DNA of 64,000 bases from Patescibacteria group bacterium (GTDB taxonomy: Bacteria > Patescibacteriota > Microgenomatia > 0-14-0-10-38-17): assembly GCA_050953885.1 (NCBI GenBank), contig JBMNNJ010000001.1:463437-527436 (forward strand). The letters run 5' to 3'. The notes below the pieces were generated by a model. That model did no database searches. It was given only the letters and a program-made list of their open reading frames with translations, and was not told the DNA's origin. Positions 2-40,881 of the stretch are shown here, piece by piece. The stretch's first letter is position 1. Each line of letters begins with the position of its first letter. The position numbers and the translations under genes were made by a program.

Positions 2-2764
2 ACAAGTCCGGGGCAAAAGTTACATGTGCAGGGTACTATTCAAGTTGGTAGCTCTACTTCTGGCGGAAACTTCTACCAAGATGCCCAAACTGGTTGGGAA
101 AGCGTAGTATCTGTTTATCGTGCAGGAGTGCTGAAAAGCGGAATAACAACAAATGGAAACGATGCAATTGGTTTATCAACAGGTGGTATCGCTTGGACTA
201 ATGCAAAATTGGCAATTTTAGGAAACGGCAATGTCGGCATCGGGACGACGAGTCCGGGGGCGAAGTTAGATGTGAGAGCGGGGAATCTTCGAGTTTATGG
301 CGGTAGTGATATTATCTTGCAAGACGACTCAACCGATCCTGGAGATTTGATATTTAGAGATAGTAGTAACACTGAATATGGAAGAGTCTATTCAGCAAGC
401 GGCGGGGCCCTTCATTTAAGTGGTGGTTCAAATACAGATGCTGAACTTACCGTTTATGATTCTGGAGCAATTTATTTCAACTCCGGCATTGGCAACAGAA
501 CCTCGCAGTATCACCAACTACACATCGATGCCGGGACCTGGGAGGTTTTCCGATATAGCTCCAGCCGAAAACTCAAATCAAACATAACTGATTTAGAAAT
601 TGACTCCTCAAAGATATACGACCTCCACCCGGTTTCTTTCACTCCTAACGATAACCCGGATATTAGGAATTTTGGGTTTATTGCCGAGGAGGCTATTGAA
701 ATAATTCCCGACTTGGTCTTGCTTGAGGCCGACGGTAGTCCTGGAGGTTTTCGATACGCCGATTTAAGCGTGCTTATACTTAACGAAATGATCAAGCAAA
801 AACCCATTATAGACAATATTTCCCTTGAATCAATTGACGATTTTAAGCCCAAGGAGGCTAGCGATTCTGCCTTCAGTTTAGTAAAAAAATCTACCGAGAA
901 AATAATTAAAAATGCCGCAGTTTTTGCCGAATTAGCGACAGCCAAGATTTATTCTGGACTTGTCGAAACCACTAACCTTATCACTGATAATTTGACCGCT
1001 AAAAGAATCACCAGCGAGGAGGTTATTTCGCCCCTTATTGAGACCGAGGAGATTAAGTTTAGCGAAAATGCCCGCCTTCGCCAAGGCTCCGGCGGGCAGG
1101 CAAAAGTAGCCATCGTTAATGCTGACGATGAGCCGACAGCGGAGTTTAACACGGAAACAAAAGAAACCACCCTCTTTGGCGACTTGGAGGTGGGCGGCAA
1201 TGTCGGTATTGGGCAGGAAGTCAGCGCCCCCAAGGCCAGCTTTGGCGATTTGCTGGCGCAAAAGATTAACACGGATGAAATTCAGGCAAACACGATTCAC
1301 GCGGATACGGCGCAGATTAGCGCGGATGCGACTATTTCCGGGACTTTATACGTTGACCGCGTGGTGGCCCGGCAGGGAGGGTTTGGAGAATTATTGGCGG
1401 AGAACATCAGCATGGACAGCATAAAGTCTATTGTTAAAGAAGAGGTAGGGATCCTGAATTCCACCCAAGGCGGACAGGCAAGCCAGGATGACGGGGGCGG
1501 AAGTCAGGATGATGATGTTCTTAGCCGTCATTCTGACGAAAGTCAGAATCTGGACAGCGGAGAACCAAGCCAAGAAGAATTCGACCTTCAGGCGCTTTTG
1601 GCAAAAGTGGAGGAATGGGCGGGGACAAGCGCTAAGAACGACTTAACGCTTGAGTGCACAACTGGGGCAGAAAACCAGATCCTGAATCAAGTTCAGGATG
1701 ACGGTTCGGTGGTGAGTCAGAATGACGAGGGCGGGGTGGTTCAGGATGACGAGGGCGGGGTGGTTCAGGATGACGGGAATCTTAATAGTCATCCTGACGA
1801 AAGTCAGGATCAAACCTTAAACCAAGCCCAAAAGAAAAACCTTTGCCTAGTGGATACCGACTTTACCGTTTTGGGCGGGCGGACCTCTCTGGCCGACACT
1901 GCCATCGCCGGCCAACTTTCCGTGGGCAGTTTAGTGATTAACAATAATTCCCTTGATGTTTTAGGCGACACTTTATACATTCAAAAATTAGCCATGGGAG
2001 GGCTGGACATCTTAAACGGCAAACTCACCGTGGACATTGACGGCAATGTCTTTATCGCCGCTCATTTAACCGTGGGCGGGGGCCTGGCCACCAACGAGAT
2101 TAGGCCGATGGAAGGGGGAGATATAACCTTCAATCTGGCTAACGTCATCCCAGACCCGATCCGGGATCAGGGAGAAACAGATCCTGACTTTCGTCAGGAT
2201 GACGGGGGTGGGGCGGTTCAGGATGACGGGAACGAGACGGGAAATAACACGGGATTTGGAAAGTTGTTAGTGAAGGGAATAAATAACGAAACGGTTGCCT
2301 CAATTGACGCCTCCGGCGCGGCCGAGTTTAAAGAGATAGCCACGGATTTATTGCGAATCAACGCGGATAAAGAAGCATCCGAATCAGCCCTCCTTATTGC
2401 CGCCGGCGAGAATTTTGAAAATATCGGCATTCAGGCACCGGGGATCAAGACCAACGCCACCGCCGGCGAGGCCACCCTACCGGCCGGAGAGAAAGAAATA
2501 ATTATCTATAATGACAAACTAACCGACCAGTCGCTGGTTTACCTCACCCCCACCGCGGACACTGGAAACAAAATTTTGTATGTCAAAGAAAAGGTAGGCA
2601 ACACGAATCAAGAACACGAATCAAACGAAAGAGACACGAAATTAACGAATGAAAACGAATTAAACGAATGGAACACGAATGAAACGAATGGTGGATATTT
2701 CGTAGTAGGGCTAAACGAAGCGCTTAACTGGGACGTACGGTTTAACTGGTGGATTATTAACTGA
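2..2764 (+). CDS. Tail-fibre/tail-spike-like repeat protein with an internal intramolecular-chaperone (Peptidase_S74-like) domain. The 5' end is truncated by the window edge, and the ORF carries in-frame insertions of intergenic repeat modules.
   Basis: The reading frame is open from nt 2 with no upstream stop. It contains TSPGxKLxV/NVGIG beta-helix-like repeats. The S74 chaperone signature is SSSRKLKSNITDLE...HPVSF...FGFIAEE...DGSPGGFRYADLSVLILNEMIK. Three low-complexity QDDGG/DPDFRQDD segments are encoded by repeat words, and the last ~30 aa are encoded by the acgaa linker array. Confidence 0.55.
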   Translation, partial: TSPGQKLHVQGTIQVGSSTSGGNFYQDAQTGWESVVSVYRAGVLKSGITTNGNDAIGLSTGGIAWTNAKLAILGNGNVGIGTTSPGAKLDVRAGNLRVYGGSDIILQDDSTDPGDLIFRDSSNTEYGRVYSASGGALHLSGGSNTDAELTVYDSGAIYFNSGIGNRTSQYHQLHIDAGTWEVFRYSSSRKLKSNITDLEIDSSKIYDLHPVSFTPNDNPDIRNFGFIAEEAIEIIPDLVLLEADGSPGGFRYADLSVLILNEMIKQKPIIDNISLESIDDFKPKEASDSAFSLVKKSTEKIIKNAAVFAELATAKIYSGLVETTNLITDNLTAKRITSEEVISPLIETEEIKFSENARLRQGSGGQAKVAIVNADDEPTAEFNTETKETTLFGDLEVGGNVGIGQEVSAPKASFGDLLAQKINTDEIQANTIHADTAQISADATISGTLYVDRVVARQGGFGELLAENISMDSIKSIVKEEVGILNSTQGGQASQDDGGGSQDDDVLSRHSDESQNLDSGEPSQEEFDLQALLAKVEEWAGTSAKNDLTLECTTGAENQILNQVQDDGSVVSQNDEGGVVQDDEGGVVQDDGNLNSHPDESQDQTLNQAQKKNLCLVDTDFTVLGGRTSLADTAIAGQLSVGSLVINNNSLDVLGDTLYIQKLAMGGLDILNGKLTVDIDGNVFIAAHLTVGGGLATNEIRPMEGGDITFNLANVIPDPIRDQGETDPDFRQDDGGGAVQDDGNETGNNTGFGKLLVKGINNETVASIDASGAAEFKEIATDLLRINADKEASESALLIAAGENFENIGIQAPGIKTNATAGEATLPAGEKEIIIYNDKLTDQSLVYLTPTADTGNKILYVKEKVGNTNQEHESNERDTKLTNENELNEWNTNETNGGYFVVGLNEALNWDVRFNWWIIN

Positions 2765-2924
2765 GACACGAATTAAACGAATGGAACACGAAACCAAACG
2801 AATAGAAACGAATCAAACGAAAGGAGAATGAATAAAAGCGAATAAGAGACACGAATTAAACGAAAGAAACACGAATCCAAACGAATGAAAACGAATTAAA
2901 CGAAAGAAAACGAATGGAACGAAA
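2595..2924. repeat. Gene-3' linker array: 10-11 bp phased (a)acgaaNNNN units in the sense orientation cacgaat. It begins inside the 3' end of ORF1.
   Basis: There are about 28 units, cacgaattaa / acgaatggaac / acgaaaccaa and so on. The pattern begins inside the ORF1 3' end, and about 15 units follow the stop. The outer end gacacgaattaaacgaatgg is shared with the array at 3339-3440. Confidence 0.8.
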
Positions 2925-3338
2925 ATGATTTTACACAAAGAATTAAGTTACCAAATAATTGGCGCCGTTTATAACACCAGAAAAATTTATGGCCCCGGTC
3001 AGAAAGAAATTGTTTACCAAAAAGGCCTTGCCGAAGAGTTAAAAGAAAATAATATTCCCTATAAGAGAGAGGTAAACATTAATATTATTTCTCCCAAAAG
3101 CGGCCGTATTTTGAGCAATTATCGGGTTGATTTTGTTATTAAAGAAAGGGTAATTTTGGAATTAAAATCATTAAAATTCCTCCCTCAAAAAATGGAGCAA
3201 CAGTTGTATTCCTACCTTCGTTCAACACCCTATGAAGTTGGATATTTAATTAATATGGGTGGCCCCGAAATTGACATTAAGCGGGTTATCCTCACCAATG
3301 ACCGCAAACCCTATCTCCACCTCTTTCACGTTCGTTAG
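2925..3338 (+). CDS. GxxExxY family protein (PD-(D/E)XK_3-type putative nuclease)
   Basis: It has the motif GQKEIVY (G-x-x-E-x-x-Y) followed by YRVDFVI...ILELKS, which is typical of PDDEXK_3. The gene is nested between inverted acgaa linker arrays. Confidence 0.55.
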   Translation: MILHKELSYQIIGAVYNTRKIYGPGQKEIVYQKGLAEELKENNIPYKREVNINIISPKSGRILSNYRVDFVIKERVILELKSLKFLPQKMEQQLYSYLRSTPYEVGYLINMGGPEIDIKRVILTNDRKPYLHLFHVR

Positions 3339-3440
3339 ATTCGTTTCTATTCGTTTTATTCGTGTCTCATTCGTTAAATTCGTTTTCTTTCGTTAAATTC
3401 GTGTCCTTCGTGTCCCATTCGTTTAATTCGTGTCCCATTC
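3339..3440. repeat. Inverted copy of the linker array (attcgtg orientation)
   Basis: Its reverse complement begins gaatgggacacgaattaaacgaatgggacacgaa and ends aacgaatagaaacgaat, matching the two ends of the 2765-2924 array. Confidence 0.8.
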
Positions 3441-5444
3441 TTCAAACAGCGGGTCGGCGGGAGTGGGACTAGGAGAAGGCAATTCTTGCGGCTGAATTTC
3501 CGGCACCATTTCTTCTTCTGGCCCTACCGGAATTTCCGGCGCCGCTTCCTCGGGAGGCAGTTGGATTGGCGAGGCTTGCGGCGTCGGTAGCGCCGGGGGT
3601 TCCTGCAATTGCCCGCCGGCCTCCTCTTCCTCTACCACCGTTTCTTCTTTCTTGGGCAATTTTTCCTCCATCTCTTTCAGCTCTTCCTGAACCTTTTCAA
3701 AGTCCGCCGAAGCCGGCTCCGTTAAGGAAAGCACCGTCTGCAGTTCCAAGGCCGCCTTCTCCCACTTTTCCTGCGCCTTATAAGCAGCCGCTAAATTATA
3801 ATGGGCGTTGGCATGATCCGGCTTTAACTCCACCGCAATTTCAAACTGGCGCTGGGCCGATTCAAAATCGCCTAAGGCGTAATATAACCCTCCCCAGGCA
3901 ATCCGCAAATTGGGATTAACCGGATCAAGTAAAACCGCCTGACGAAGCGAGTCAAGCGCCCACTGCTGGGCCCCTTCGGCCACGCCGATAATCTGCTGAT
4001 AAATTTGGGATAGGCTATACCAGTTGTCAGCCTTCAGGGGATTGGCCGCGGCGGCCGCTTTGCCCTCCCGAATTGCCTGCTGGATTAAAATGCTCACCTG
4101 TTGTTTATCCTGATCGCTTAAATTTTCCTGCTGGGAAAGAGCGTTGGCTAAAGCCAAATTGGTGTTGGCATAGGCCAAATGATAAAAATCCTGATAGGGG
4201 TTTTTCTCCAACGCTTCAATTTGTAAGTTATAAGCATTGCCGCCCTCGCCACGGTCGAAAGCCTCCAGGGAACGGGAGAAAACCGCATCCGCTCCTAAAA
4301 GCCGGCCATACCACCAGCCCAAAGCAATAAGAGCCAAAAGGGGAATAAAAGCGATTTGGGGGGAATAAGAACGAGAAAAGGCTTTTTCTCCCCTCACCTC
4401 CCCCAACAAAACAAAGAAAAGCACCCATAAAACCAAATCAAAGGGAAGAAAAAGACCGGCTACGGCAAGAAAAATAAAAGCCGGCGAAAGGTTTTTAAAA
4501 CCTCTTCGGGAAACTTTAACCAGCAAAAACAAAAACGATCCCAAGCCCAAAAGCCCCACCTCGGTTAACAAGTTTAAATATTCATTAAAAGAAGAGGGAA
4601 AAAGGGCGTTCCAAAAAGAAGTGGCGTTTACCGCCGCCGGCCGAAAACGGGTATAGGCTTGGGAAAAATTCTCCGGCCCGGCGCCGAAAAAAGCGCTTTG
4701 CCAAGTTTTAAAATTCTCCACCGCCACCACCCAAGCCACCTGAGGAGAAAGCAAAACCGGCTTAGCCTCCACCAAGTTTATTCCCCCCAAAACCAAGCCT
4801 AAAACCAAAACCACCATCGCCGCCAAGGCCGCAAACGGCTGCCAAGTTAACTTTTCCTGGGAACGAAAATGACGGACAACAATTGCAAGTAAATAAACAA
4901 GGCTGGCCAAAACAAAAACCAGCGCCGAAAAAATAGAACCGGTGGGGCTCCAGACCTTATTTTCCAAGAAAGGCCACGAAAACCATTTTTTAAGCACCCC
5001 CAGATATTGGCCCATTAAAACTAACGCTAAAAATAGGGCCGAAATTGTGGCCGGCAGTTGGGGGTTGGCCTTTGGCAGTTGGGCCAAAAGAAAAGCCAAA
5101 AGAAAACCACCCAAGACAATAGCCGTTTTACTGCTTAAGGCGTTAATTTTAGTCGCCGCCGTGGGAGTAAAAAGAGAGGAAAGAGCAAAAACAGCCACCA
5201 AAGCAAGCGCCGGCCAAAACCAGCGGGGAAAGAAAAGGCTTACCTTTTCTTTTTTAAAAAATTTTTCCCCCAGAAAGATTAACCAGCCCACTAACGTTCC
5301 CCCTAAGAGAAGAGTGATTTTGGGAAGGTTGTAAGCATCAAATAAAGAAGGTACAAAGAAAAGAGGCAGAAGAAAAATAAGAAGATAAAGCCAAATTTTA
5401 AGAAGCCGGTTTTCGCCTTTGGCAACGGACAGCATTTCTTCCAT
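3423..5444 (-). CDS. O-antigen ligase/Wzy-like polytopic membrane protein with a C-terminal TPR region and a Pro/Glu-rich tail
   Basis: There are about 12 hydrophobic segments. A periplasmic loop reads FGAGPENFSQAYTRFRP, which is Wzy_C-like. TPR-like A/Y/L periodicity follows in the C-terminal third. Confidence 0.5.
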   Translation of the reverse strand: MEEMLSVAKGENRLLKIWLYLLIFLLPLFFVPSLFDAYNLPKITLLLGGTLVGWLIFLGEKFFKKEKVSLFFPRWFWPALALVAVFALSSLFTPTAATKINALSSKTAIVLGGFLLAFLLAQLPKANPQLPATISALFLALVLMGQYLGVLKKWFSWPFLENKVWSPTGSIFSALVFVLASLVYLLAIVVRHFRSQEKLTWQPFAALAAMVVLVLGLVLGGINLVEAKPVLLSPQVAWVVAVENFKTWQSAFFGAGPENFSQAYTRFRPAAVNATSFWNALFPSSFNEYLNLLTEVGLLGLGSFLFLLVKVSRRGFKNLSPAFIFLAVAGLFLPFDLVLWVLFFVLLGEVRGEKAFSRSYSPQIAFIPLLALIALGWWYGRLLGADAVFSRSLEAFDRGEGGNAYNLQIEALEKNPYQDFYHLAYANTNLALANALSQQENLSDQDKQQVSILIQQAIREGKAAAAANPLKADNWYSLSQIYQQIIGVAEGAQQWALDSLRQAVLLDPVNPNLRIAWGGLYYALGDFESAQRQFEIAVELKPDHANAHYNLAAAYKAQEKWEKAALELQTVLSLTEPASADFEKVQEELKEMEEKLPKKEETVVEEEEAGGQLQEPPALPTPQASPIQLPPEEAAPEIPVGPEEEMVPEIQPQELPSPSPTPADPLFEEWDTN

Positions 5445-5582
5445 ATCTTTATACTATTATAGAAGCGGGGAGGTGTCAAGAGATATATGCAACGTAAAGC
5501 GTAACTTGTAATGCGTAATAAGCAAGTGCAAAGCGCAAATATCAAAAATTAAAATACAAATGTAAAATGCAAAAAGTTAGTA

Positions 5583-5700
5583 ACTCGCAATAAGTAAATT
5601 CAAAATTTAAAATTCAAAATTGCAAGTCAAAAGTTAAAAGTTTTTTTTGCTTTACTTTTGAATTTTAACTTGTAATTTTGACTTTTAACTTTTGACTTTT
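5583..5700. repeat. Type-1 word hairpin (tcaaaag / ttaaaag / caaaat words)
   Basis: The left arm caaaatttaaaattcaaaattgcaagtcaaaagttaaaag is followed by a loop and then the right arm ttttgaattttaacttgtaattttgacttttaacttttgac. Confidence 0.7.
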
Positions 5701-5711
5701 AACTTTTAGTT

Positions 5712-5876
5712 ATTCGATTCTGCCCGCCAGGCGGCGGATTCGTCAGAATGACGGCCACGATTAGCGTCATTCTGAACTTGATTCAGAATCGTTATTGATA
5801 TCTAAAGAACGGTAGATCCTGACTTTCGTCAGGATGACAGCGACGGGGATGATTCTGTCTGCCAGCAGGTGGACAG
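5712..5876. repeat. Type-3 composite GC palindromic element
   Basis: Its modules are ccgccaggcggcgg, attcgtcagaatgacgg..cgtcattctga, ctgaacttgattcag, gatcctgactttcgtcaggatgac and gtctgccagcaggtggacag. Confidence 0.8.
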
Positions 5877-5996
5877 AAGTTAAAAGTTCTTTTGCTTTAC
5901 TTTTTAATTTTAACTTGTACTTTTGACTTTTAACTTTTGCCTTTTGAATTTTTTTCGTTCCCCATTCGTTTTAATTCGTGTTTTCCAATCCCGTGT

Positions 5997-7064
5997 TTAC
6001 TTTAAATACCCTAACGGATTAACGTTGCCCGCGGGGGCGCGGATTTCAAAGTGAAGATGAGTGCCGGTAGAGCGGCCGGTGGAACCCATTTGACCAATCA
6101 CCTGCCCCCGCAAAACCGCCTGACCGGCGGAAACCGCCACCGAAGAAAGATGACCATAAAGCGTTTTCGTGCCGTCCTGATGATCAATAATCACATGGAT
6201 ACCATAAGCTTGGGGGACGCCCCAACCGGCCTGAACTACCGTGCCTCCCTTGGCGGCCACCACCGCCGGCGCGCTACTGTTGGCGATATCAATCGCCTTA
6301 TGATACCAGGAATAGCCTTGGGAAATACTGCCGGTGGTAGGCCAAATAAAATCGCCTAAAGCGCCGGCTGCCGGCGGCGTCTGCGCCACCAAGGATGCGG
6401 GCGTTTGCGGCGCGGCCGGTTCCCACAACTTCACCTTCGGCTTTACCCCCCCGGGAATAATTAACTCCTGCCCCACCGCTAAAGCAAAAGTTTCGTCATT
6501 AGCAAAGGTGTTAAAAGGGAAATCAACAATCGCCTGCGCACTAACACCATAAGTTTTGGCCAAAGAATAAACCGTTTCTCCCCGCCGCACTGTATGAAGC
6601 ACGCCGGAAACCGGCAGAATGCGCAAAACCTGACCGGGCTTAATATCGTCAATCGAACCCAAATCATTGGCCCAGCGAATGGTATCTAAGGAAACGCCAA
6701 ATTTTTGGGCAATAGAGGAAGCCGTATCGCCCTCCACCACCGTATACTCCACCACTCCCCCCCGCTGATTCTCCCCCACGGCAGAAGCGCCTAAAACTTG
6801 AAAATTATTTCCCCCTATTCCCAAAACGGCTCCCTCCTGACCAAAATCTTCATCCTTAGGAGTTAAAAGAGGAGAAAGGGCAATCCCCGCAATTACCAAA
6901 ATGCCCACCGAAAAATGACTTATTGGCCGCGCCATTTTCCCCCGCCGCTGATAAAGAATTTCGGTAAGACCGGTTTTGGCTTCCTGAAAAAGGCCTAAGC
7001 TTATTAAAAAATGCCGACGAAAGAAAGAATACCAAGCACGGAGATAGGACAAGAGATCATTCAT
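5997..7064 (-). CDS. LysM-domain M23 family metallopeptidase
   Basis: There are two LysM-like segments (GDTASSIAQKFGVSLDTIRWAN and GETVYSLAKTYGVSAQAIVDFN). The C-terminal M23 motifs are HKAIDIA and GSTGRSTGTHLHFEI. Confidence 0.8.
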   Translation of the reverse strand: MNDLLSYLRAWYSFFRRHFLISLGLFQEAKTGLTEILYQRRGKMARPISHFSVGILVIAGIALSPLLTPKDEDFGQEGAVLGIGGNNFQVLGASAVGENQRGGVVEYTVVEGDTASSIAQKFGVSLDTIRWANDLGSIDDIKPGQVLRILPVSGVLHTVRRGETVYSLAKTYGVSAQAIVDFPFNTFANDETFALAVGQELIIPGGVKPKVKLWEPAAPQTPASLVAQTPPAAGALGDFIWPTTGSISQGYSWYHKAIDIANSSAPAVVAAKGGTVVQAGWGVPQAYGIHVIIDHQDGTKTLYGHLSSVAVSAGQAVLRGQVIGQMGSTGRSTGTHLHFEIRAPAGNVNPLGYLK

Positions 7065-7140: not shown

Positions 7141-7300
7141 AATCCGCCCGCTGGCGGATTCGTCAGAATGACGGCAGCCGTGCCGTCATTCCGGACTTGA
7201 TCCGGAATCTGTGTTATTGTCAGAAAACGCAGATCCTGACTTTCGTCAGGATGACGTTTACAGCAGAATAATGTTATTCGCTCATTCGTGTCCATTCGTT
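7141..7300. repeat. Type-3 composite element, a direct copy relative to 5712-5876
   Basis: The modules are ccgcccgctggcgg, attcgtcagaatgacgg..ccgtcattc and gatcctgactttcgtcaggatgac, occurring in the same order. Confidence 0.8.
7232..7291. repeat. Left arm of a 60-bp perfect inverted repeat bracketing rho
   Basis: The sequence gatcctgactttcgtcaggatgacgtttacagcagaataatgttattcgctcattcgtgt is the exact reverse complement of 8585-8644. Confidence 0.9.
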
Positions 7301-7329
7301 TCTAATTCGTTTTTATTCGTGTTTTTTTC

Positions 7330-8544
7330 TTACCTTCTCCCCAAATTCTCCAAAAACTCCTCATTATTTTTGCTTTTGGCCAGCCGTTCTAAAATTACCT
7401 CGGTGCGCTCATCCGGCCCCAAAAGATCAATCATTTTCCTAAAAGTAACAATTTTGGGATAAAGCTTTTCGCCAAACAAAAGCTCCTCCTTGCGCGTGCC
7501 GGAACGCTGAAGATCAATGGCCGGGAAAACCCGCCGTTCCGCTAAGCGTCGATCCAGATGCAACTCCATGTTGCCGGTGCCCTTAAATTCCTCATAAATC
7601 AGGTCGTCCATTCGCGAGCCCGTGTCTACCAAGCAGGTGCCGATAATCGTCAGGCTGCCGCCATTTTCAATATTACGGGCGGCGCCAAAAAATTTCTTGG
7701 CCGGAAAAAGAGCCGCCGGATCAAAACCGCCGGAAAGAGTGCGACCAGAGGTAGGGATAGCTAAATTATAAGCCCGCGCCAAACGGGTAATGGAATCCAT
7801 CAGCAAGAAAACATCTCTGCCCATTTCTACCAAACGCTTGGCGCGCTCCAAAGCAATTTCCGCGGCAAAAGTTTGGTTTTCCGGCGATTCATCAAAATTA
7901 GAAGCGGCCACCTCCCCTTTTCCCCCGGTGATTTTTTTGACATGATGGCTAATATCGGTTACTTCCTCCGGCCGCTCGCCAATTAAAACCACCATCAAAT
8001 GAATTTCGGGATAATTAGCAGCCACTCCTTGGGCGATATCCTTTAAAAGCCAAGTTTTGCCTGCCTTGGGAGGAGAAACAATTAACCCCCGCTGGCCAAT
8101 GCCAATCGGCGCCACCAAATCAATCAGACGCGTGGAAAGAATCTCCGGCTTTGTTTCCAATTTTAACCAGCGATCGGGATAAACCGGCGGCAACTCTTCA
8201 AAAACCGGCCGCGTGCCCACTTCTTCCGCCGGCAGGCCGTTAATTTTTTCTACCCGCAAAAGGCCGTAATAGCGTTCATTTTCCTTGGGAGCGCGCACCT
8301 GACCGCCCACCATATCCCCTTCGCGCAGGCCAAACCGATAAACTTGAGAAGAGGAAACATAAATATCCTCCTCCGAGGGGGCAAAATGAGGCCGCAAATA
8401 GCCATGACCATCCTCGGCAATTTCCAAAACTCCCTCCCGATATTCGGTGGGTAAATTGGCGTCGGGAATGGGCAAACCAACTCCTTGAGACCTTTCCTCT
8501 TCGGGAATGCTCTTAACCGGTTGAGAAGAAAAATTAGAAGACAT
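7330..8544 (-). CDS. rho: Transcription termination factor Rho
   Basis: It has an N-terminal S1-like RNA-binding region and the Walker A motif [10 protein letters not shown]. The RecA-type core matches Rho throughout, ending in the characteristic [14 protein letters not shown] tail. Confidence 0.9.
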
Positions 8545-8584
8545 CGTTAGAAAACACGAATTAAAACGAATTAAAAACGAATAA

Positions 8585-8644
8585 ACACGAATGAGCGAAT
8601 AACATTATTCTGCTGTAAACGTCATCCTGACGAAAGTCAGGATC
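8585..8644. repeat. Right arm of the 60-bp perfect inverted repeat bracketing rho
   Basis: The sequence is acacgaatgagcgaataacattattctgctgtaaacgtcatcctgacgaaagtcaggatc. Confidence 0.9.
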
Positions 8645-8831
8645 GGCTTTAAAGCTTGATGCTTGAAACGCTTGAGGCTTGAATCGCTTGAATCGTTTAA
8701 TGTTTTTACGTTTCAAACGTCTCATGCATTACGAAAGTCAGGATCGGCTTTAAAGCTTGATGCTTGAAACGCTTGAGGCTTGAATCGCTTGAATCGTTTA
8801 ATGTTTTTACGTTTCAAACGTCTCATGCATT
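8630..8831. repeat. Perfect tandem duplication of a 101-bp unit with gcttga words
   Basis: The unit acgaaagtcaggatcggctttaaagcttgatgcttgaaacgcttgaggcttgaatcgcttgaatcgtttaatgtttttacgtttcaaacgtctcatgcatt occurs at 8630-8730 and again at 8731-8831. Confidence 0.85.
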
Positions 8832-12128: not shown

Positions 12129-12206
12129 TAATTCAGCGAATTAACACGAATGGGAAACGAAAAAAAATCAAAAGTCAAAAGTTAAAAGTCAAAATTACAA
12201 ATACAA

Positions 12207-13453: not shown

Positions 13454-13550
13454 TCATCCTGCCTCCTTTTTTTATAAGATTATAAAGAATTATAACATAA
13501 AAAAATACATTATTAAACTGCTAAACTGTTAAATTGTTAAACTGTTGCCG

Positions 13551-13740
13551 GTGACAGACAAATGCAAATCTCAAATCGCAAATCTCAAAACTCAAAACTA
13601 CAACTCAAAACTCAAAACGCAAATGGCAAATCTACATGTTAAATGTTAAAACTTTTTTAAAGTTTAAAGTTGTTTTTTTTAGATTTGAGTTTTAACATGT
13701 AGTTTTGAGTTTTGCGATTTAACATTTGAGTTTATTTTTC
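13551..13740. repeat. Type-2 word hairpin (ctcaaaa / cgcaaat / ctacatgttaaa words) with an aaacttttttaaag loop
   Basis: The left arm caaatgcaaatctcaaatcgcaaatctcaaaactcaaaactacaactc...gcaaatctacatgttaaatgttaaaac pairs with the right arm gttttaacatgtagttttgagttttgcgatttaacatttgagttt. Confidence 0.75.
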
Positions 13741-13743
13741 GTT

Positions 13744-14721
13744 TCAATTCGTGTCTTCTCCCTCCACCCACTCCCTAATCTCCTCCCAATCCCCCGCTTT
13801 TGGCTCAAAAACCCAAAGACCATATTTTGACACCGGCGGGGTGGTTAAAAACTCTGCCGGCAAAGAAAGAAATTCAAAAGAAATTTTGTTTTTAAGATAA
13901 GCCTCACCCAAACGCAATAAAACCGGCGCAGGCAAGTCTTTCTCTAAGTTATTATAAAAACGATAAAGCTGACCAGAAAAAGCCGGCTCTTTTAAGAGAC
14001 TAAAAGAACTGACCTTTGCCAAGACCGCTTCCACCACCTGAAGCTGGCGCCGATTGCGCGCCAAATCATTACCTTCATCGGGGTTAGCGCTTTTTCGGGA
14101 ACGAATGTATTGCAAGGTCCTTTCGCCATTCATCAGCTGTTTTCCTTCCTCAAAGCGAATCGTCGTCGTTTGGCCAGAACCATCATCAAGAGGATAGGCA
14201 TCATCTTCAAAAGCTTCAACTACCTCAACCTCAATTCCCCCCAACAAATCAATTAATTCCGAAATTTTGTCAAAATTTAATAAAATTGAATAATTTATTT
14301 CCTCGCCGGTAATCGCTCTAACATTTTCCTTAATTAAATAGGTAGGATCAGCGGGGTTAGTTTTTTTACCATAATAATAAAGAGCGTTTATTTTCGTGGC
14401 TAAATCAGAAATCCATAAATCGCGAGGAAGAGAAAGAAAGCTGATTTTTCCCCTTGAAGGCCTGGCCATACCAAGAATAATCGTATCGGTTAAAAGCGTT
14501 TTCTCTCCCGGCCGGCTATCAAGCCCTAAAACCAAAAAATTAAAATCCTCAAATTGGGTATTTTTTGTGGCCAAAAGAAGTTGTTTTAAATCATTATTGG
14601 TAATACCCGCCGCTTTAGTAAACTCGGAAACATACCAATAAGAAAAAGAGAAAAGAACCAGAAGAGAAAAAAGAAAAAGAACCAAAAGAGAGTAAAGGAA
14701 GATTTTAAGGGGCTTGGGCAT
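13744..14721 (-). CDS. LytR-CpsA-Psr (LCP) family protein
   Basis: It has an N-terminal TM segment. LCP core motifs are present: LVLGLDSRPGE...RTDTIIL-like TLLTDTIILGMARP...ISFLSLPRDLW. Confidence 0.75.
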   Translation of the reverse strand: MPKPLKIFLYSLLVLFLFSLLVLFSFSYWYVSEFTKAAGITNNDLKQLLLATKNTQFEDFNFLVLGLDSRPGEKTLLTDTIILGMARPSRGKISFLSLPRDLWISDLATKINALYYYGKKTNPADPTYLIKENVRAITGEEINYSILLNFDKISELIDLLGGIEVEVVEAFEDDAYPLDDGSGQTTTIRFEEGKQLMNGERTLQYIRSRKSANPDEGNDLARNRRQLQVVEAVLAKVSSFSLLKEPAFSGQLYRFYNNLEKDLPAPVLLRLGEAYLKNKISFEFLSLPAEFLTTPPVSKYGLWVFEPKAGDWEEIREWVEGEDTN

Positions 14722-14964: not shown

Positions 14965-15086
14965 GGTTCCCGGCAATGACCTATTTTCCCCCACCTTGCG
15001 GCGGGGTATCGTCAGCGCTGTCGCGTTTCACGACTCTGTTCGGAATGGGAAGAGGTGGGACCACGACGCTCCAATCACCGGGAACC
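14965..15086 (-). rRNA. rrf: 5S rRNA
   Basis: The reverse complement matches the 5S consensus GGTCCCACCT..TTCCGAAC..GTGAAACG..GCGCTGA. Helix I is closed by ggttcccgg/ccgggaacc. Confidence 0.75.
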
Positions 15087-15431
15087 AAATTTTAAAACTT
15101 ATCTTTAATAAGAGTAGGAAAGAGCATCTTTAAAATGCCGAAAACCATTAGTACCGGTCAGCTTAATTTGTTGCCAAACTTACACCTCCGGCCTATCAAC
15201 CAGGTAGTCTCCCTGGGGTCTTAAAGACTCTTCATCTTGGGATCGGTTTCCCGCTTGAGATGCTTTCAGCGGTTATCCAAAACAAACATAGCTACCCAGC
15301 ATTGCGGCTGATGCCACAACTGGACCACCAGAGGTTTGCCCATCCCAGTCCTCTCGTACTAGGGACAGATTCCCTCAAGAATCAAAACGGTTACTGCGGA
15401 TAGAGACCAAGCTGTCTTACGCATATTATCC

Positions 15432-16176
15432 CTCTATTACTAGAGGTATAGACTATATCACCACCCCGCCATAACGGGGGTTTGGCGTATTATAATGGCG
15501 TTAATTTTTAAGATTATCTTCTTAAAGATTTATCTTAAACAGCCACTATCTAGTTTTTATTAAAAAACTAAGTCGTTACGGGGACAATAATTTGCTCTTT
15601 ACCAAATATTTTTTCACTGTTATGGAAGTAATTGTTCTTTTCTTGGAATAATTAAGAAAAGAAAAACCATCAATATCCTTAGCGATTTTCATGAGCATTT
15701 CCGGCGAGTAATCTCTAGCATTATGAGGATATTTTTTGATTATCCCTAATGATAGTTTTGCCTGGTCATGCTTAATCCTTAAGTAAGGATATAATGCTTC
15801 CAAAACCTCTTCGACAGCCTTGAAGCCAACAATGTTATACTCGCAAATGCCATCATTGCGATCGCGAATATAACCATACTTTAGCTTCTCTTTCAACCAT
15901 AACAGAAACCAACGATACTTTTTATTTTGATAAAAAATAACGCTGGCTTTAACCTGAAAACCAAGACGGTAATCCGATTTCTTAATAAGTTGAAAAAGAA
16001 TACAACCATCACCATCTAAAAATCCGGCGATGTAGGCTTTATCTTTGTCTAGCATAATATTGTCTTCCCTCGGTGTTGTCCTTTGTCGACCAGCTTAAAA
16101 TCAACAAGGATTTCACCGATATTAGCCAAATTTATCTATCATATTACTACGATAGAGCGCAGTATTCTACGCTTTG
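15432..16176 (-). mobile_element. Group I-type intron in 23S domain V, near E. coli position 2593, encoding a LAGLIDADG endonuclease
   Basis: The exon sequence GAGCTGGGTT is interrupted. The exon resumes with GCGTAAGACAGCTTGGTC, which corresponds to CGTGAGACAGTTCGGTC. ORF 15576..16055 lies entirely inside the insertion. Confidence 0.6.
15576..16055 (-). CDS. LAGLIDADG homing endonuclease (single-motif)
   Basis: The motif [13 protein letters not shown] is present and the ORF is located inside the 23S insertion. Confidence 0.8.
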
Positions 16177-16670
16177 AACCCAGCTCACGTAGGTTTTTAA
16201 TGGGCGAACAGTCCAACCCTTGGGGGCTTCTTCACCCCCAGGTTAACCTGAGCCGACATCGAGGTCGCGAACTGGCCCGTCGATATGTACTCTTGGGACC
16301 AACCACGCTGTTATCCCCGGGGTAGCTTTTATCCGTTAAGCCCCGACCCTTCCACGCGGTATCGGGGGATCACTAAGACCTGCTTTCGCATCTGCTCGAC
16401 CCGTCGGTCTTGCAGTTAAGCTGGCTTTTGCCTTTGCACTTTACTCGCGGTTTCCATCCGCAAGAAGCCAACCTTTGTACGCTCGCGTTACCTTTTAGCA
16501 AGCGACTGCCCCAGTCAAACTGCCCACCAGACACTGTCCTAGTTTGCGTTTCCAGCAAACATTAGTCAGAATTGTTATTTCCAAAGAGAGGTGTTTCATT
16601 GTTGCCCCGCCAAAAGGCGGGGCTCCCTCCTACGCTAAACAATTGGAAATAACTCCTCAATATCAAGTTG

Positions 16671-16702
<32 letters not shown>

Positions 16703-16829
16703 AGTAACTAGGCCGCATCTTCACAGCCATTTCAATTTCGCCGAGTAGAGGTTTGTAGACAGTTGCTTGGTCGTTGGGTCTTTCATACCGGTCGGAACTC
16801 ACCCGACAAAGGACTTCGCTCAAAACTAA

Positions 16830-17478
16830 TTGAGTTTTGGACTATATCTTATCGCCTAAGGCGATTCTAGCGTATAGTCTCTGGGGATTCTAAAAAAAAT
16901 GGTCTTCTCTTCCTAGTATTCATCGTTTCGATTATTTTAACAATCTTTCTTACCCCTTCTAAATGAAGATGTTCACTATTTTCCATTAAGGACAACACTT
17001 GAGAAAATTTCTCAAAATCATCCCTTTTAGATGTTTTAAGGGGATATTGTTTGAAGAAAGGGATAATTATTTCCCTTAATTCTTTTTGGGATCGGACACA
17101 ATAACGATAAAGATCTTCTTTATGGTTATCATCCCTTCTATTAACAAAAAGAGAACCACAACCGAAAAAGTTTTTCATTACTTTTAGGGCTTGTTTACTC
17201 TTTTCCCCTTGAGTGACGATGAACTCCGGCATAATCTGCCAATCGGAAGAAGTAGTCGGATTTTTATGAAGGCTAATTGTAAAACAGCCTTCACCGTCAA
17301 CAAACCCAACTATCCAACCAATTATTTTTAGTCTTTCCTGCTGATTGCCTCTACTGGAAGAATTTTTACTTGGCATAAAAATGACAATTTAATTATGCCA
17401 GAGTATCTCCAGAATAACAAGGTTTTCCAGCATATAGCTAGATTTTACTACGGCAGTGTTTAATGTCCTTACCGTAGA
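16830..17478 (-). mobile_element. Group I-type intron in 23S domain IV, near E. coli positions 1917-1931, encoding a LAGLIDADG endonuclease
   Basis: On one side the exon block ...GAAGCCCCGGTGAACGGCAGCAGTAACTCTAAC is present. On the other side the exon resumes with ...GCGAAGTCCTTTGTCGGGTGAGTTCCGACC. The boundaries are approximate. Confidence 0.5.
16867..17376 (-). CDS. LAGLIDADG homing endonuclease
   Basis: The motif IIGWIVGFVDGEGCF is present and the ORF lies inside the second 23S insertion. Confidence 0.8.
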   Translation of the reverse strand: MPSKNSSSRGNQQERLKIIGWIVGFVDGEGCFTISLHKNPTTSSDWQIMPEFIVTQGEKSKQALKVMKNFFGCGSLFVNRRDDNHKEDLYRYCVRSQKELREIIIPFFKQYPLKTSKRDDFEKFSQVLSLMENSEHLHLEGVRKIVKIIETMNTRKRRPFFLESPETIR

Positions 17479-17479
17479 A

Positions 17480-17640
17480 CAGTTAGAGTTACTGCTGCCG
17501 TTCACCGGGGCTTCAGTTCCTCGCCCCCTGGGCGAGAATAACAATTTCCGCTGATTAAAAACAGATTTCCACAGATAAATCCGTGTTAATCCGCTCAAAA
17601 ATCCGCGTTAATCCGTTATTCTTGTCCAGAGGACAAGGTT
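17480..17640. repeat. 23S expansion segment built from cggattaac words, about 100 nt longer than the corresponding region after E. coli position 1852
   Basis: The words cggattaacgcgg / gagcggattaacacgg repeat after the conserved block GGAAGGTTAA. Confidence 0.5.
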
Positions 17641-17751
17641 CCTTAACCTTCCGGCACTGGGCAGACTTCAGCCCCTATACCTCCTCTTTTAGGAGTTTGC
17701 AGAGACCTGTGTTTTTGGTAAACAGTCGCCAAGCAGTCTTTTGTTGTAGCC

Positions 17752-17885
17752 CGCCTCGCGCTCCGCGCGAGGAAATCCGAATTTCTAAACCCGAAACCCG
17801 AAACAAATCACAATTTTTCAAATCCGCCCGCTGGCGGATTGAATTTGTTTCTAATTTCGTTATTCGTGCTTTCGAATTTCCTTGT
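17752..17885. repeat. Hairpin insertion in 23S made of ccgaaa/tttcg words around the core palindrome ccgcccgctggcgg
   Basis: The left arm ggaaatccgaatttctaaacccgaaacccgaaacaa pairs with the right arm ttgtttctaatttcgttattcgtgctttcgaatttcc. The core is the same as in the intergenic type-3 elements. Confidence 0.6.
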
Positions 17886-19167
17886 GCGAAGTACAAGGCA
17901 GGCAGGGCATCTTGCGAACTTACGCCCAGCTTTTTTGCCTAGTTCCTTAAACCTCTTTCTCTCGCTCGCCTTGGTCTACTCGACCTGCCCACCAGTGTTG
18001 GTTTTGGGTACGGTTTTTGCCTGTTCTTGCCGCGACAATTTTCTCGGAAGCCAAAATCACCCAACGCTTTTTTCCTTTTGGGAAAAAAGGCCATCACGGC
18101 TCGGGTTAAAACAAACTAATGGATTTTCCTATTAGCTCTACCTTGCCGTTTAGACAGGAAATCATTAACCTGCTCGGGTTATCTGGCTTCGTCCTGCCCC
18201 AGCTGATAACGAACAAACAAAAGTACAGGAATATTAACCTGTTGGCCATCGCCTACTCCGCCTAAAACAGCGGACTGAGCTTAGGACCGACTAACCCTCC
18301 GTCGACGAACGTTGCGGAGGAAACCTTAGGCATTCGGCGGCCCGGATTCTCACCGGACTTTCTCGCTACTCATACCGGCATTCTCACTCCCCGACGCTCC
18401 ACCCTCGCCTTACGGAAGGGCTTCACCGCCTCGGGGACGCTCCCCTACCATCCGCCAAAGGCGGATCTGGGACTTCGGTAGATAGCTTATCCTCGATCAT
18501 CTTCGGCGCTAATTTTCATCCGCCAGTGAGCTGTTACGCTTTCTTTAAAGGATGGCTGCCTCTAAGCCAACCTCCTGGGTGTCTTTGAAAATTAACTTCC
18601 TTCAAAAACTTAGCTATCATTTAGAGACCTTATTCGCCAGTCTGGGTTGTTTCCCTCTCGCCCTATCAGCTTAGCCCGATAGGACTGACTCCTTGTTCTT
18701 TTATCTTTGTATTCGGAGTTTGGTTGAAATAAATAGCTTGCGCCACTTATTCCATCCAGTGCTCTACCCCAAAGTAAAAATAAACAAGGGCTATGCCTAT
18801 ACATATTTCGGGGAGAACCAGCTATCACCAAGCTCGATTGGCATATTACCCCTAACCACAAGTCATCCAAACCTTTTGCAGCAGATACTGGTGCGGGCCT
18901 CCCCCCGTCTTTCGACAGGATTCACCCTGCTCATGGTTAGCTCGCTTGGTTTCGGGTCTTCCGCCATTTCTCCTCCAGAAAAAACTGGAAACGCGCTTTT
19001 CACACTCGCTTTCGCTTTGCCTCCCCCCGCTTAGCGGGGTTAGACCAAGAAACAGCGGGAACTCACCGGTTCATTCTTCAATAGGCACGGAATCACCCCG
19101 CCAAGGCGGGGCTTTTCCTGTTTGTTAGCAAATGGTTTCAGGTTCTTTTTCACTCCCCTTCCGGGGA

Positions 19168-19207
<40 letters not shown>

Positions 19208-19524
19208 TAGCAAGAGTATTTAGCCTTATCCCGTGGTCGGGACAGATTCGCACAAAGTTTCTTCCCTTGTGTTACTTGGGTACTAGGTTCATTCTTCTCT
19301 GGTTTTGTGTACCAGACTTTCACTGTCTTTGGTTATTTATTCCAAAATATTCCACTACCAAAAAAGAATGAATAATCCTAGCCCCGCAACCCCCACCTTG
19401 TGCGAAGCACAAGGTAAGTTTAGGCTTTTCCGTTTTCGCTCGCCGCTACTTGCGGAATCACTTTCGTTTTCTTATCCTTCGGGTACTTGAATGTTTTCTT
19501 CCCCCGAGTTCCCTCACGCCGCTT

Positions 19525-19640
19525 CGCGGCGAACTCAAAACTCAAAACGCAAAACTCAAAATTTAAATTTTAAAAAATTTTGAGATTTTAGTTACAGTTT
19601 TGACATTTGAGATTTAAAATTTAAGTTCGCAGTGAAACGG
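19525..19640. repeat. Type-2 word hairpin (ctcaaaa / cgcaaaa / tttgag) inserted near the 5' end of 23S
   Basis: The sequence gaactcaaaactcaaaacgcaaaactcaaaattt...aaatttgagattttagttacagttttgacatttgagatttaaaatttaagttc is flanked by 23S sequence. Confidence 0.55.
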
Positions 19641-19849
19641 CGTGCAGCGCAGTTTTCACTGCGCTGGGTTTCCCCATTCGGAAACCACCGGATCAAAGGT
19701 TGGTTGGCACCTCCCCGGCGCTATCGCTGCCGCCAGCGTCCTTCTTCGGCTCTTGCTACCAAGGCATCCACCATTTGCCTTATGGCATTTTAAAAATGCG
19801 TCTTCCTACCCTTATTAAAGATAGGTTCCAAATTTTCAAAGTGCGAAAG

Positions 19850-19922
19850 TGGAGCCAGCCGGGATTGAACCGGCGACCTTCCCGTTGCAAACGGGATGCT
19901 CTTCCCGCTGAGCTATAGCCCC
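19850..19922 (-). tRNA. tRNA-Ala(TGC)
   Basis: The sequence is GGGGCTATAGCTCAGCGGGAAGAGCATCCCGTTTGCAACGGGAAGGTCGCCGGTTCAATCCCGGCTGGCTCCA. It has the G3:U70 pair and the anticodon loop cgTTTGCAAcg. CCA is not encoded. Confidence 0.9.
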
Positions 19923-20195
19923 AAAGCAAATGTAATGTAAAATGTAAAAAGTAGGGGCGTATTGCATACGCCCGCCAACAGGAAACAAACGACCAATGCT
20001 AAATTCAAAAGTTAAAATTTAAAATTCAAAATTGCAAGTCAAAAGTTAAAAGTTCTTTTGCTTTACTTTTGAATTTTGCATTTTGCATTTTGAATTATTT
20101 TTATTCGTTTCCCATTCGTTTTAATTCGTGTCTTTTTAGCCCGTCACTGCGAGCAAATTAGAATTATATCGGTAAAGGGCTTTCTTGTCAAAGTT
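19923..20195. repeat. Composite intergenic-type element (linker, type-1 hairpin, GC palindrome) occupying the tRNA-Ile/tRNA-Ala spacer of the rRNA operon
   Basis: It contains the palindrome gtaggggcgtattgcatacgcccgcc and a type-1 hairpin (caaaagttaaaatttaaaattcaaaattgcaagtcaaaagttaaaag...). It ends with the linker ttcgtttcccattcgttttaattcgtgtc. Confidence 0.6.
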
Positions 20196-20270: not shown

Positions 20271-20285
20271 GAAATTTTAGTGCGA

Positions 20286-20417: not shown

Positions 20418-22088
<1,671 letters not shown>

Positions 22089-40589: not shown

Positions 40590-40810
40590 CAAAGGTCAAA
40601 ACTCAATCCGCCAGCTGGCAGACAAGTTAAAACTCAAAACTTAAAACTCAAATCTCAAAACTACATGTTAAAACTCAAAACTAAAAAAACTTTAGGGCTT
40701 AATATTTGTATTTCTAAATTGTAATTCTGTTTTTGTCTTTCAAGTTTTAAGTTTTGCGTTGTAGTTTTGAGTTTTGCGATTTGAGATTTGAATTTTGAGA
40801 TTGTCTTTCG
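40590..40810. repeat. Type-2 word hairpin (long-loop variant), preceded by ccgccagctggcagac
   Basis: It is nearly identical to 35425-35640. Confidence 0.75.
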
Positions 40811-40881
40811 TTTCTCATTCGCGTTAATTCGTGCATTTTACAGTATCGCAATTTAACCATTTTTCTTTTATAATAAAATTA

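Follow-up and report, generated by a model that had tools for sequence, protein, structure and literature searches.

We analysed a stretch of 64,000 nucleotides (the window) from a Patescibacteria group bacterium (GenBank assembly GCA_050953885.1, contig JBMNNJ010000001.1, positions 463,437 to 527,436 of the forward strand), in which a small gene encoding a GxxExxY protein is located between two mutually inverted arrays of short ACGAA repeats. The gene and its arrays, which an earlier inspection of the sequence (the original prediction) had proposed to be a nuclease gene and its repeat partner, represent a single unit at positions 2762-3440: the GxxExxY gene occupies the loop of a long imperfect palindrome, the two halves of which are referred to here as the left and the right arm of the cassette. 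On its left side the cassette borders a giant open reading frame (ORF), and on its right side a convergent gene for a membrane protein with tetratricopeptide repeats (TPR). The coordinates are compiled in Table 1.

Both outer ends of the cassette carry the 20-mer GACACGAATTAAACGAATGG as exact inverted copies, as had been noticed from the sequence, with 0 matches expected in shuffles. Given the unit spacing of 9-11 nt, the basic module of the arms is a 20-mer of two units. The left arm holds an internal 61-nt duplication (2763-2823 and 2846-2906, 90%), and the right arm overlaps the final 8 nt of the GxxExxY ORF as well as the final 18 nt of the TPR gene. Inverted pairs between the two arms extend over up to 74 nt at 81%, and the outermost pair comprises 31 nt at 94% (2762-2792 and 3407-3437). 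The giant ORF ends in ...FNWWIIN, and its stop codon TGA (2762-2764) abuts the left terminus of the cassette. The TPR protein ends in ...EEWDTN, the last codons of which (W D T N stop) are located within the right arm. In close relatives the TPR gene ends with a stop codon TGA directly before GACACGAAT, from which we deduce that the consensus cassette ends are TGA-GACACGAAT ... ATTCGTGTC-TCA. A further ACGAA array, which differs in length between strains, is located in frame within the giant ORF.

Table 1 Features of the cassette, its neighbours and solo arrays in the window. Positions are window positions.
Feature	Position	Strand	Remarks
Left arm	2765..2924	+	15 ACGAA-type units, 9-11 nt spacing, ends directly at ATG
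Left terminal 20-mer GACACGAATTAAACGAATGG	2765..2784	+	exact match
GxxExxY / PDDEXK_3 nuclease gene	2925..3338	+	137 aa; family model matches
Right arm	3331..3440	-	11 units, ACGAA on minus strand (TTCGT on plus)
Right terminal 20-mer	3415..3434	-	exact reverse complement of left GACACGAATTAAACGAATGG
Giant ORF	26..2764	+	912 aa in window, runs off 5' end; Peptidase_S74 chaperone domain
In-gene ACGAA array	2600..2691	+	9 units, in frame in giant ORF, translated NTNQEHESNERDTKLTNENELNEWNTNETN
Membrane/TPR gene	3423..5444	-	673 aa, convergent with cassette
Solo ACGAA array, 3 units	5953..5990	-	after stop of M23 peptidase gene
Solo ACGAA array	7283..7329	-	directly after rho stop codon; part of 100-nt inverted repeat around rho
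Solo ACGAA array	8552..8600	+	directly upstream of rho start; partner of 7226-7325
Solo 3-unit ACGAA module then poly-A	12130..12165	+	left edge of intergenic palindrome
Near-identical ACGAA modules	25970-26005, 43120-43150, 52065-52100		likened to the 12130..12165 module
Solo 3-unit array	40806..40840	-	right edge of intergenic palindrome
Similar 2-3-unit arrays	about 13737-13760, 20103-20130, 35651-35680, 39470-39500		likened to the 40806..40840 array

The ORF between the arms matches the family models TIGR04256 (GxxExxY; E 1.5e-28, 99.5 bits at a cut-off of 35, positions 1-116 of 116) and PF13366 (PDDEXK_3; E 2.3e-26, 92.9 bits at a cut-off of 22, positions 1-117 of 117). The residues E28, D69, E79 and K81 are invariant across 24 aligned GxxExxY sequences, and the D...ExK nuclease motif is intact. 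Together with the coordinates of the arms, these hidden Markov model scores and the motif confirm that a small ORF of the PD-(D/E)XK type lies between mutually inverted ACGAA arrays. The AlphaFold model of the protein (pLDDT 90) has its best PDB matches in Cas4 SSO0001, RecE, AdnA/AddB and lambda exonuclease, all of which are weak (TM about 0.5), and no solved structure related by sequence was found. With the motif, an upstream acidic residue and the alpha-beta-beta-beta-alpha-beta core fold of the predicted structure, the protein belongs to the PD-(D/E)XK superfamily and is a predicted nuclease. PDDEXK_3 is the sole domain detected in the 137-aa protein, in which no DDE, HUH, serine- or tyrosine-recombinase domain was found. 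A PD-(D/E)XK nuclease by itself is not known to have strand-transfer activity. A scan of small ORFs of the window revealed no further nuclease besides the two LAGLIDADG ORFs, in line with the original prediction.

Within the 64-kb window the gene is present as a single copy without a GxxExxY paralogue. The PADLOC defence models gave no match to the protein and there is no CRISPR or defence context; a single PHROG match is weak and of unassigned function. No relatives were detected in 2.9 million viral contigs, and the few plasmid matches are on non-mobilizable replicons. A profile search of 1.84 billion representative proteins indicated a family size of 16,541 representatives at 50% identity, many of which are embedded within long proteins. 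Proteins of about 265 aa with two tandem GxxExxY domains also occur (P0053, P0070, P0096 and about 20 others), which suggests that these are tandem cassettes translated as one ORF. Annotators handle GxxExxY proteins and the four-helix-bundle proteins of intervening sequences (IVS) alike, as small intergenic ORFs.

Promoter or terminator signals above chance were not found inside the element, and neither gathering thresholds over the whole window nor permissive E-values at 2500-3550 resulted in an Rfam match at the cassette. With regard to integrons, a non-exhaustive scan revealed no integrase beside the cassette or among the window ORFs scanned, and the arms are located on both sides of the ORF, whereas an integron cassette carries attC at its 3' end and has an IntI integrase with attI in the vicinity. 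In the predicted fold of the whole cassette the arms are paired and the ORF is located in the loop (-188.9 kcal/mol, z -9.4); the antisense strand folds at -220.4 kcal/mol.

Homologues of 31-96% identity, located on unrelated contigs, were gathered together with their flanking DNA from metagenome and genome collections. For each locus a flank score was obtained by local alignment of the upstream flank with the reverse complement of the downstream flank (threshold ≥ 28). The inverted flank score reached this threshold at 24 of 35 non-redundant GxxExxY loci and at one of 83 other ORFs on the same contigs, for which the mean score was 17.5 (standard deviation 4.8). Inverted arrays are therefore a feature of other copies of the gene as well. 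At all 24 loci the inverted score exceeded both the score in direct orientation and that of every shuffle. The remaining 11 loci mostly harbor truncated, frameshifted or distant (31-35% identity) genes, and at three intact loci among them arrays are visible, with scores of 21-27 just below the threshold.

At least six types of repeat unit were distinguished, which differ by lineage, and complementarity between both arms of a locus is retained in each case. The unit is ACGAAT/ATTCGT in the window and on contigs L001, L013 and L023-L027, ACAGAT/ATCTGT on L007, L008, L011, L028-L031 and L034, ACGGAT on L040 and ACAGGAT or ACTGGA on L014, L016, L017 and L042-L045, and relatives at 31-36% identity carry units of the GCGGAAC and GCGAAAC types. 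Inverted arrays were also found in cultured bacteria, namely in Bacteroides finegoldii (unit CACAGAGGA, gene next to radA), in Bernardetia (unit CACAGAGA) and in Sphingomonas (unit CGCGAAG, cassette between fabD and fabG). In Gemmatirosa a complete palindrome is located 3' of the GxxExxY gene, and Treponema has an 11-nt pair only. The termini AAGCACAC...GTGTGCTT are common to many lineages, are usually preceded by TGA or TAA and are scarcely found at other sites of those contigs; the termini AGCACAC/GTGTGCT are nearly confined to GxxExxY flanks.

On L007, L008, L011 and L013 no further array of the respective unit was found within 3 kb, yet inverted arrays are present at the gene. The anticipated restriction to convergent junctions did not hold, since about 26 of 31 GxxExxY genes directly follow a gene of the same direction. 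The right arm is present even though the neighbour on the downstream side is in many cases co-directional or missing. Other contexts of the cassettes are positions after rho, after rplL, beside radA and between fabD and fabG. Target-site duplications, for which the original prediction had also proposed to look, were found neither at the window cassette nor at 10 loci with clear termini, where the longest direct end match (0-3 nt) equals that of the permuted control. The mismatches between the arms comprise 42 of the G:U type (sense strand), 56 A:C and 178 transversions, and are mostly located at spacer positions. The duplex energies of 33 loci gave no sense-strand bias, the antisense strand being slightly favoured (p 0.045).

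Since the arms travel with the gene, co-vary and have a counterpart at only one of 83 control ORFs, we conclude that they are part of the GxxExxY cassette. They belong to the GxxExxY gene and not to its neighbours, and this architecture is family-wide. The literature that we searched on GxxExxY, PF13366, TIGR04256 and IVS proteins contained no description of flanking arrays, and our data suggest that this packaging represents a widespread, apparently undescribed selfish DNA cassette. Contigs with close homologues mostly extend over about 1-3 kb only, which suggests that metagenome assemblies break at the flanking arrays. In addition, many annotated GxxExxY proteins bear N- or C-terminal tails (TDRTDK..., ...SVKSV), which are translated arrays.

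The cassette is also found inside a gene. In 89 of 118 RecG homologues from the Candidate Phyla Radiation (CPR), a GxxExxY cassette is located in frame between motifs II (DEQHRFG) and III (TATPIPR), which are separated by 159-193 aa in the carriers compared with 19-39 aa in 28 clean non-carriers (96 aa in one further sequence). The DNA of three carriers (L072-L074) has complementary arrays on both sides of the domain (GCGGACT/AGTCCGC and similar). All 89 carriers have a left linker of the NAE/TQT type (60% K, N, E, D, Q, T, H) and a right linker of the SAS type (24% Ser), which is what complementary arrays yield on translation. On a crude neighbour-joining tree of RecG, from which the insert had been removed, carriers and non-carriers are interspersed, corresponding to at least seven gains or losses. 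Because the arms are kept inside recG, where no gene ends, selection would act on the nucleic acid and not on a function at gene ends. The carriers are found among P0079, P0083 and P0199-P0317, several of which are simply named "GxxExxY protein" at NCBI.

Furthermore, we identified palindromes without a gene. On L030, a gene-less palindrome of about 80 nt (2077-2150) is located 1 kb from the cassette, and both of its arms match the cassette arms. It is placed in frame in the downstream membrane-protein gene, where it adds 27 aa that are missing from the orthologues in the window and on L001. Similar solo palindromes are present on L036 (210-290) and L069, and on L040 a solo left arm follows rplJ and a full cassette follows rplL. 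The solo elements of L030, L036 and L040 use the unit of the local cassette.

Seven contigs, obtained from different samples, encode the exact protein of the window, in each case flanked by the giant gene and the TPR gene and in one orientation, and the trio of giant gene, GxxExxY gene and TPR gene is kept at 91-96%, 78%, 74% and 63% protein identity. The dN/dS ratio is 0.14 in comparison with L023 and 0.05 in comparison with L025, where dS amounts to 2.6 (synonymous saturation). The low dN/dS and the high dS at one locus indicate that the GxxExxY gene is functional, subject to strong purifying selection and long resident. In this lineage the cassette is an old, vertically inherited resident between the giant fibre-like and the TPR membrane genes, and it is inactive at the window locus on any visible timescale. 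On L025 the neighbours are the same as in the window and the cassette is inverted relative to them, which is the outcome expected from recombination between inverted arms. L061 and L064 carry an ORF that differs by 1 nt from that of the window, with both arms and the in-gene array rearranged (650-1000); the giant gene diverges there by about 13% at its 3' end, and the TPR side is identical or nearly so. The arrays turn over fast, acquiring and losing units among strains with ORFs that are identical or only a few residues apart. On L023 (96% identity, coverage 0.7x) the in-gene array is fused to the intergenic array at 470-560 and the giant gene lacks its last 25 codons, which represents either a real deletion between direct arrays or an assembly collapse. 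A giant-gene end of the type ...FNWWII(N) adjoins the cassette in 12 of 39 loci, in either orientation.

Within the window, all 16 multi-unit ACGAA arrays are located at the edge of an intergenic region and have the polarity of the cassette (ACGAA left, TTCGT right). The cassette ORF had been described as the only one between inverted ACGAA arrays, which is correct for the ACGAA...TTCGT polarity; rho, in the opposite polarity, and the gene at 40831-43131 are likewise bracketed by inverted ACGAA arrays. The rho gene (7330-8544, minus strand) is enclosed by a 100-nt inverted repeat (7226-7325 and 8551-8650, 94%), which is better than that of the cassette and in which a hairpin module is combined with 28 nt of unique sequence and an ACGAA array, the polarity being opposite to that of the GxxExxY flanks. 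Of its six mismatches, three would be compatible with G:U pairs on the rho sense strand, compared with none on the opposite strand, so that the rho mRNA could be enclosed in a stem of its 5' and 3' ends. The intergenic region upstream of rho also contains a perfect 101-nt tandem duplication (2.0 copies, 100% identity, 8630-8831). On other CPR contigs (L011, L034 and L039) a GxxExxY cassette is located directly after rho.

We propose that the element is by nature a selfish or semi-domesticated homing-type cassette. The nuclease would recognise or cut the array palindrome, in the form of duplex motifs that recur along the arms or of a cruciform or hairpin extruded from it. An occupied copy would then be the template for repair, the arms providing the homology, and the gene would in this way be copied into the centre of gene-less palindromes with a matching unit; alternatively, the nuclease might maintain the gene-less copies, as in RAYT/REPIN systems. 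This repeat population would comprise, as members or remnants, the solo ACGAA arrays at the ends of other genes and the array in the giant ORF. Inward-facing stop codons are present at the arm ends (TGA followed by GACACGAAT in the window, TRA-AGCACAC elsewhere), which border directly on the end of the preceding gene, and the arms are free of stop codons in the cassette's own direction where they are placed inside recG. Owing to these stop-bearing ends and stop-free arms, the cassette sits at gene 3' ends, in operons and in frame with the genes left unbroken, and the arms may be built to be harmless to translation, so that the element can live even in essential genes like recG.

The reading of the gene as an autonomous partner of the repeats proved to be a reasonable one in view of the co-variation of the flanks, the shared termini, the gene-less copies and the recG cassettes. 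To the full explanation, i.e. the cassette architecture together with a nuclease that targets the palindrome around its gene and an element that persists as a selfish cassette of the homing or RAYT/REPIN kind, we assign about even chances. The wider proposal that GxxExxY proteins are partners of unrecognised cross-phylum selfish elements, which would home into or maintain gene-less palindromes and of which the ACGAA arrays would be one population, is put forward tentatively and appears rather doubtful.

Several observations weigh against these proposals. Most ACGAA arrays of the window are solo half-sites rather than palindromes, and its dominant heptamer arrays and hairpin modules have no evident link to the GxxExxY gene. 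In Fusobacteria, Prevotella and Persicobacter the arrays are direct and not inverted. The pattern in RecG could also reflect one old insertion followed by losses, the tree being crude. At the window locus, which is conserved down to 63% identity with dS > 2.6, the gene is present in a single copy and target-site duplications are missing; as the locus is conserved past synonymous saturation, recent movement is not demonstrated there. Finally, the action of the nuclease on the arm repeats, be it cutting or binding, is something that we infer.

The arms might also act at the level of RNA, by pairing in the transcript of the upstream gene so that RNase III or another step acting on double-stranded RNA frees or stabilises a monocistronic mRNA for GxxExxY and insulates the operon; the arms would then serve expression rather than the mobility of DNA. 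This is modelled on the ORF in a stem-loop of the Coxiella 23S IVS, the 28-bp terminal stem of which is cut by RNase III (PMC4990558), and we regard it as a serious, though rather unlikely, rival. It would agree with the whole-cassette fold around the ORF, with the lack of promoter or terminator signals within the element, with the long co-directional ORF that ends at the left arm in about 26 of 31 loci, with cassettes inside operons such as fabD-fabG, and with the inverted repeat around rho and its G:U-compatible mismatches on the sense strand only. However, G:U-type mismatches on the sense strand of the arms are not in excess (42 vs 56) and transversions dominate, the antisense strand of the cassette folds better than the sense strand, and the duplex energies show no sense bias. 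Units do not correspond in strictly collinear order between the two arms, and a solo half-array has nothing to pair with. In recG a cut in the stem would destroy the mRNA of the host gene, but all 89 carriers retain the arms; the nuclease cargo is also left unexplained. Transversion-dominated spacer mismatches without G:U bias fit repeated recognition motifs better than a selected RNA helix, and the mismatch pattern, the absence of a favoured strand in folding and the retention of the arms in recG favour a role at the level of DNA. A fairly remote reading is that the module has been domesticated, with a nuclease for branched or cruciform DNA and arrays kept by the host driving variation at the giant fibre gene, and with the nuclease domain recruited in RecG. 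The recurrent position beside the ...FNWWII(N) end, the synteny of the trio across wide divergence, the low dN/dS (0.05-0.14) and the widespread in-frame fusion to RecG, a helicase of branched DNA, are compatible with it. The same applies to L061 and L064, where the near-identical ORF and TPR side next to a divergent giant-gene end and rearranged arrays indicate that arrays mark recombination breakpoints, and to the segment between the in-gene and the intergenic array that is deleted on L023, although this contig, with its low coverage, is possibly a collapsed assembly. On the other hand, many cassettes are found in unrelated contexts (after rho or rplL, beside radA, between fabD and fabG), gene-less palindromes in frame in other genes look selfish and not useful, and no invertase or other partner gene is conserved nearby. 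The homing or RAYT-like reading, the packaging of RNA and domestication are not mutually exclusive.

The original prediction had seen the minimal architecture of a mobile element in the cassette. This stands insofar as the arms and the gene form one cassette with gene-less relatives, but not in the sense of a minimal cut-and-paste transposon. For GxxExxY to be a cut-and-paste transposase, with the arrays as its terminal inverted repeats, or the parent of a miniature inverted-repeat transposable element, is very improbable: the long terminal inverted repeats with identical 20-mers, the termini conserved in other lineages and the gene-less derivatives would suit such an element, but these are opposed by the absence of target-site duplications at the window cassette and the 10 loci, the single copy, the conservation of the locus past synonymous saturation, a 137-aa nuclease core without any DDE, HUH or serine-/tyrosine-recombinase domain, and the missing viral and scarce, non-mobilizable plasmid matches. 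The fallback that had been offered, in which each of two convergent neighbours contributes its own 3' linker and the small gene is located between them by chance, starts from the observations that ACGAA arrays follow the stop codons of several other genes of the window, that every intergenic region is palindromic and that both arms start exactly at the stop codons of the neighbours. Given this pattern and the bracketed rho gene, it could not be excluded from this genome alone. The comparative sequence data refute it, and we regard it as hardly credible: homologues on unrelated contigs carry the arrays (24 of 35 loci vs one of 83 control ORFs), four contigs have inverted arrays at the gene and no others within 3 kb, the right arm is present even when the downstream neighbour is co-directional or absent, and the arms persist in recG without neighbouring gene ends.

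In its function the cassette would be most like a RAYT with REPINs or a homing endonuclease gene, being a member of neither. The comparison with RAYT and REPINs is drawn from PMC3116915, PMC3337134 and bioRxiv 10.1101/2021.07.10.451892. In both cases a single-copy gene is flanked by inverted copies of the dispersed repeats of the genome (about 16 further ACGAA arrays in the window), a lineage-specific repeat co-evolves with the gene, inheritance is mostly vertical with long residence, and gene-less palindromic copies are scattered in intergenic regions. The GxxExxY protein, however, is a predicted PD-(D/E)XK nuclease, whereas RAYT is an HUH/Y1 transposase, and the GxxExxY arms consist of iterated 9-11-nt units and not of one REP hairpin, with copies in frame inside genes. 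The likeness to homing endonuclease genes and inteins lies in the one precise recG site between motifs II and III, in the patchy distribution among relatives and in the absence of target-site duplications; as in homing endonuclease genes, the flanking homology could serve repair-mediated copying. A homing endonuclease of the PD-(D/E)XK type is I-Ssp6803I. Unlike in inteins and introns, there is no Hint or splicing domain and no intron ribozyme (no Rfam match), and the insert stays in the RecG protein. Homing endonuclease genes target a unique gene sequence, whereas homing of the cassette would presumably be into a repeat palindrome. No pair of an occupied and an empty allele from one population was found among the 89 RecG carriers and 29 non-carriers compared.

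Palindromic elements of Rickettsia are short palindromic repeats that are located in frame in genes and translated as extra loops. The solo palindrome of L030 (27 aa) and the array in the giant ORF, both in frame, resemble these elements, from which the cassette differs by its lineage-specific unit arrays with a protein-coding partner. With the nucleases of the Cas4/RecB family the GxxExxY protein would share the fold and the catalytic motif, but it has a minimal 120-aa core, and no Fe-S cysteine cluster is evident in the alignment, for which no formal test was made. The ORF-bearing 23S IVS of Coxiella and Leptospira encode the S23p four-helix-bundle protein and have been described as selfish, with a sporadic distribution (PMC4990558). 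As in these, a small ORF is located in the loop of a stem formed by complementary termini and rides in a host transcript. In contrast to the IVS, the cassette is located between protein-coding genes and not in 23S helix 25 or 45, its cargo is a nuclease, and its arms are composed of unit arrays, in which the spacers pair poorly and a G:U signature is lacking.

The packaging by arrays, the gene-less versions and the in-frame insertions give the GxxExxY/PDDEXK_3 family a concrete, testable role. Should the nuclease act on the arms of its cassette, it would provide a second example of a gene-repeat partnership of the RAYT/REPIN kind, with a different mechanism, and this, if true, would partly explain the repeat load, the fragmented assemblies and the low-complexity protein tails in CPR and Bacteroidota. 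For annotation it is relevant that, owing to the arms, ORFs are inflated at their N- and C-termini and seem to encode fusion proteins.

Three further candidates were considered and rejected. A shufflon-like switching of the C-terminus of the giant gene by way of the in-gene array and the right arm does not agree with the lack of an antisense ORF of at least 50 aa in the GxxExxY gene and with the same orientation on seven of seven contigs. TIGR-Tas or CRISPR-like arrays are not supported, as the unit is only about 10 nt long and there are no spacers and no Tas or Cas gene. Rho-utilisation sites after the stop codons were dismissed because the arrays, as judged by eye, are A-rich with G roughly equal to C, in contrast to the C>G rule.

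Beyond the cassette, nearly every intergenic region of the window is a nested palindrome (e.g. 5546-5953, 13513-13733, 24432-24543, 35404-35618, 39258-39466 and 43152-43460), and the intergenic spacers of 150-590 nt are long for a CPR genome. The palindromes consist of heptamer arrays (AAAAGTC, AAAACTC, AAAATTC) and, after these, the complementary arrays; on the plus strand the A-rich arm is in every case the left one and the T-rich arm the right one. They include small hairpin modules, and an ACGAA array often marks their left edge, or a TTCGT array their right edge. The hairpin modules gatcctgactttcgtcaggatgac, cattctgaacttgattcagaatg and tccgccagctggcgga recur in intergenic sites (e.g. 5800-5840, 7230-7255 and 8615-8650) and are also present in frame in the giant ORF (1691-1775 and 2150-2230), where they are translated as ...SHPDESQD... 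and ...DPDFRQDDGGG.... A palindromic element of about 95 nt (GTAGGGGCGGACCCATGTGTCCGCCCGT ... GGGTCGACACATGGGTCGACCCCTAC) has six copies on the plus strand (12211, 22325, 29542, 46619, 48813 and 52193), which usually occupy the middle of a heptamer palindrome. One of them, at 46619, is truncated and shares nucleotides with the 3' end of a gene. For this element a structure of 28 pairs was predicted, without covariation and without an Rfam match.

The rRNA operon is located at 14968-22088 on the minus strand, and its 23S match (16092-19794) covers 3703 nt for a model of 2925 nt. One LAGLIDADG ORF lies inside the 23S gene (16867-17376) and another between the end of the 23S match and the 5S gene (15576-16055). 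The source is a CPR-type genome, and its 23S gene measures 3.7 kb. On L001, a relative at 74% identity, a gene for a 93-aa GIY-YIG nuclease is located between the TPR and M23 peptidase genes (5700-6330), with hairpin modules as long direct repeats on both sides (direct flank score 161). In the orthologous region of the window (5444-5997) the repeats are present and the GIY-YIG gene is absent. The GIY-YIG gene and its hairpin modules may represent a second association of a small nuclease with repeats.

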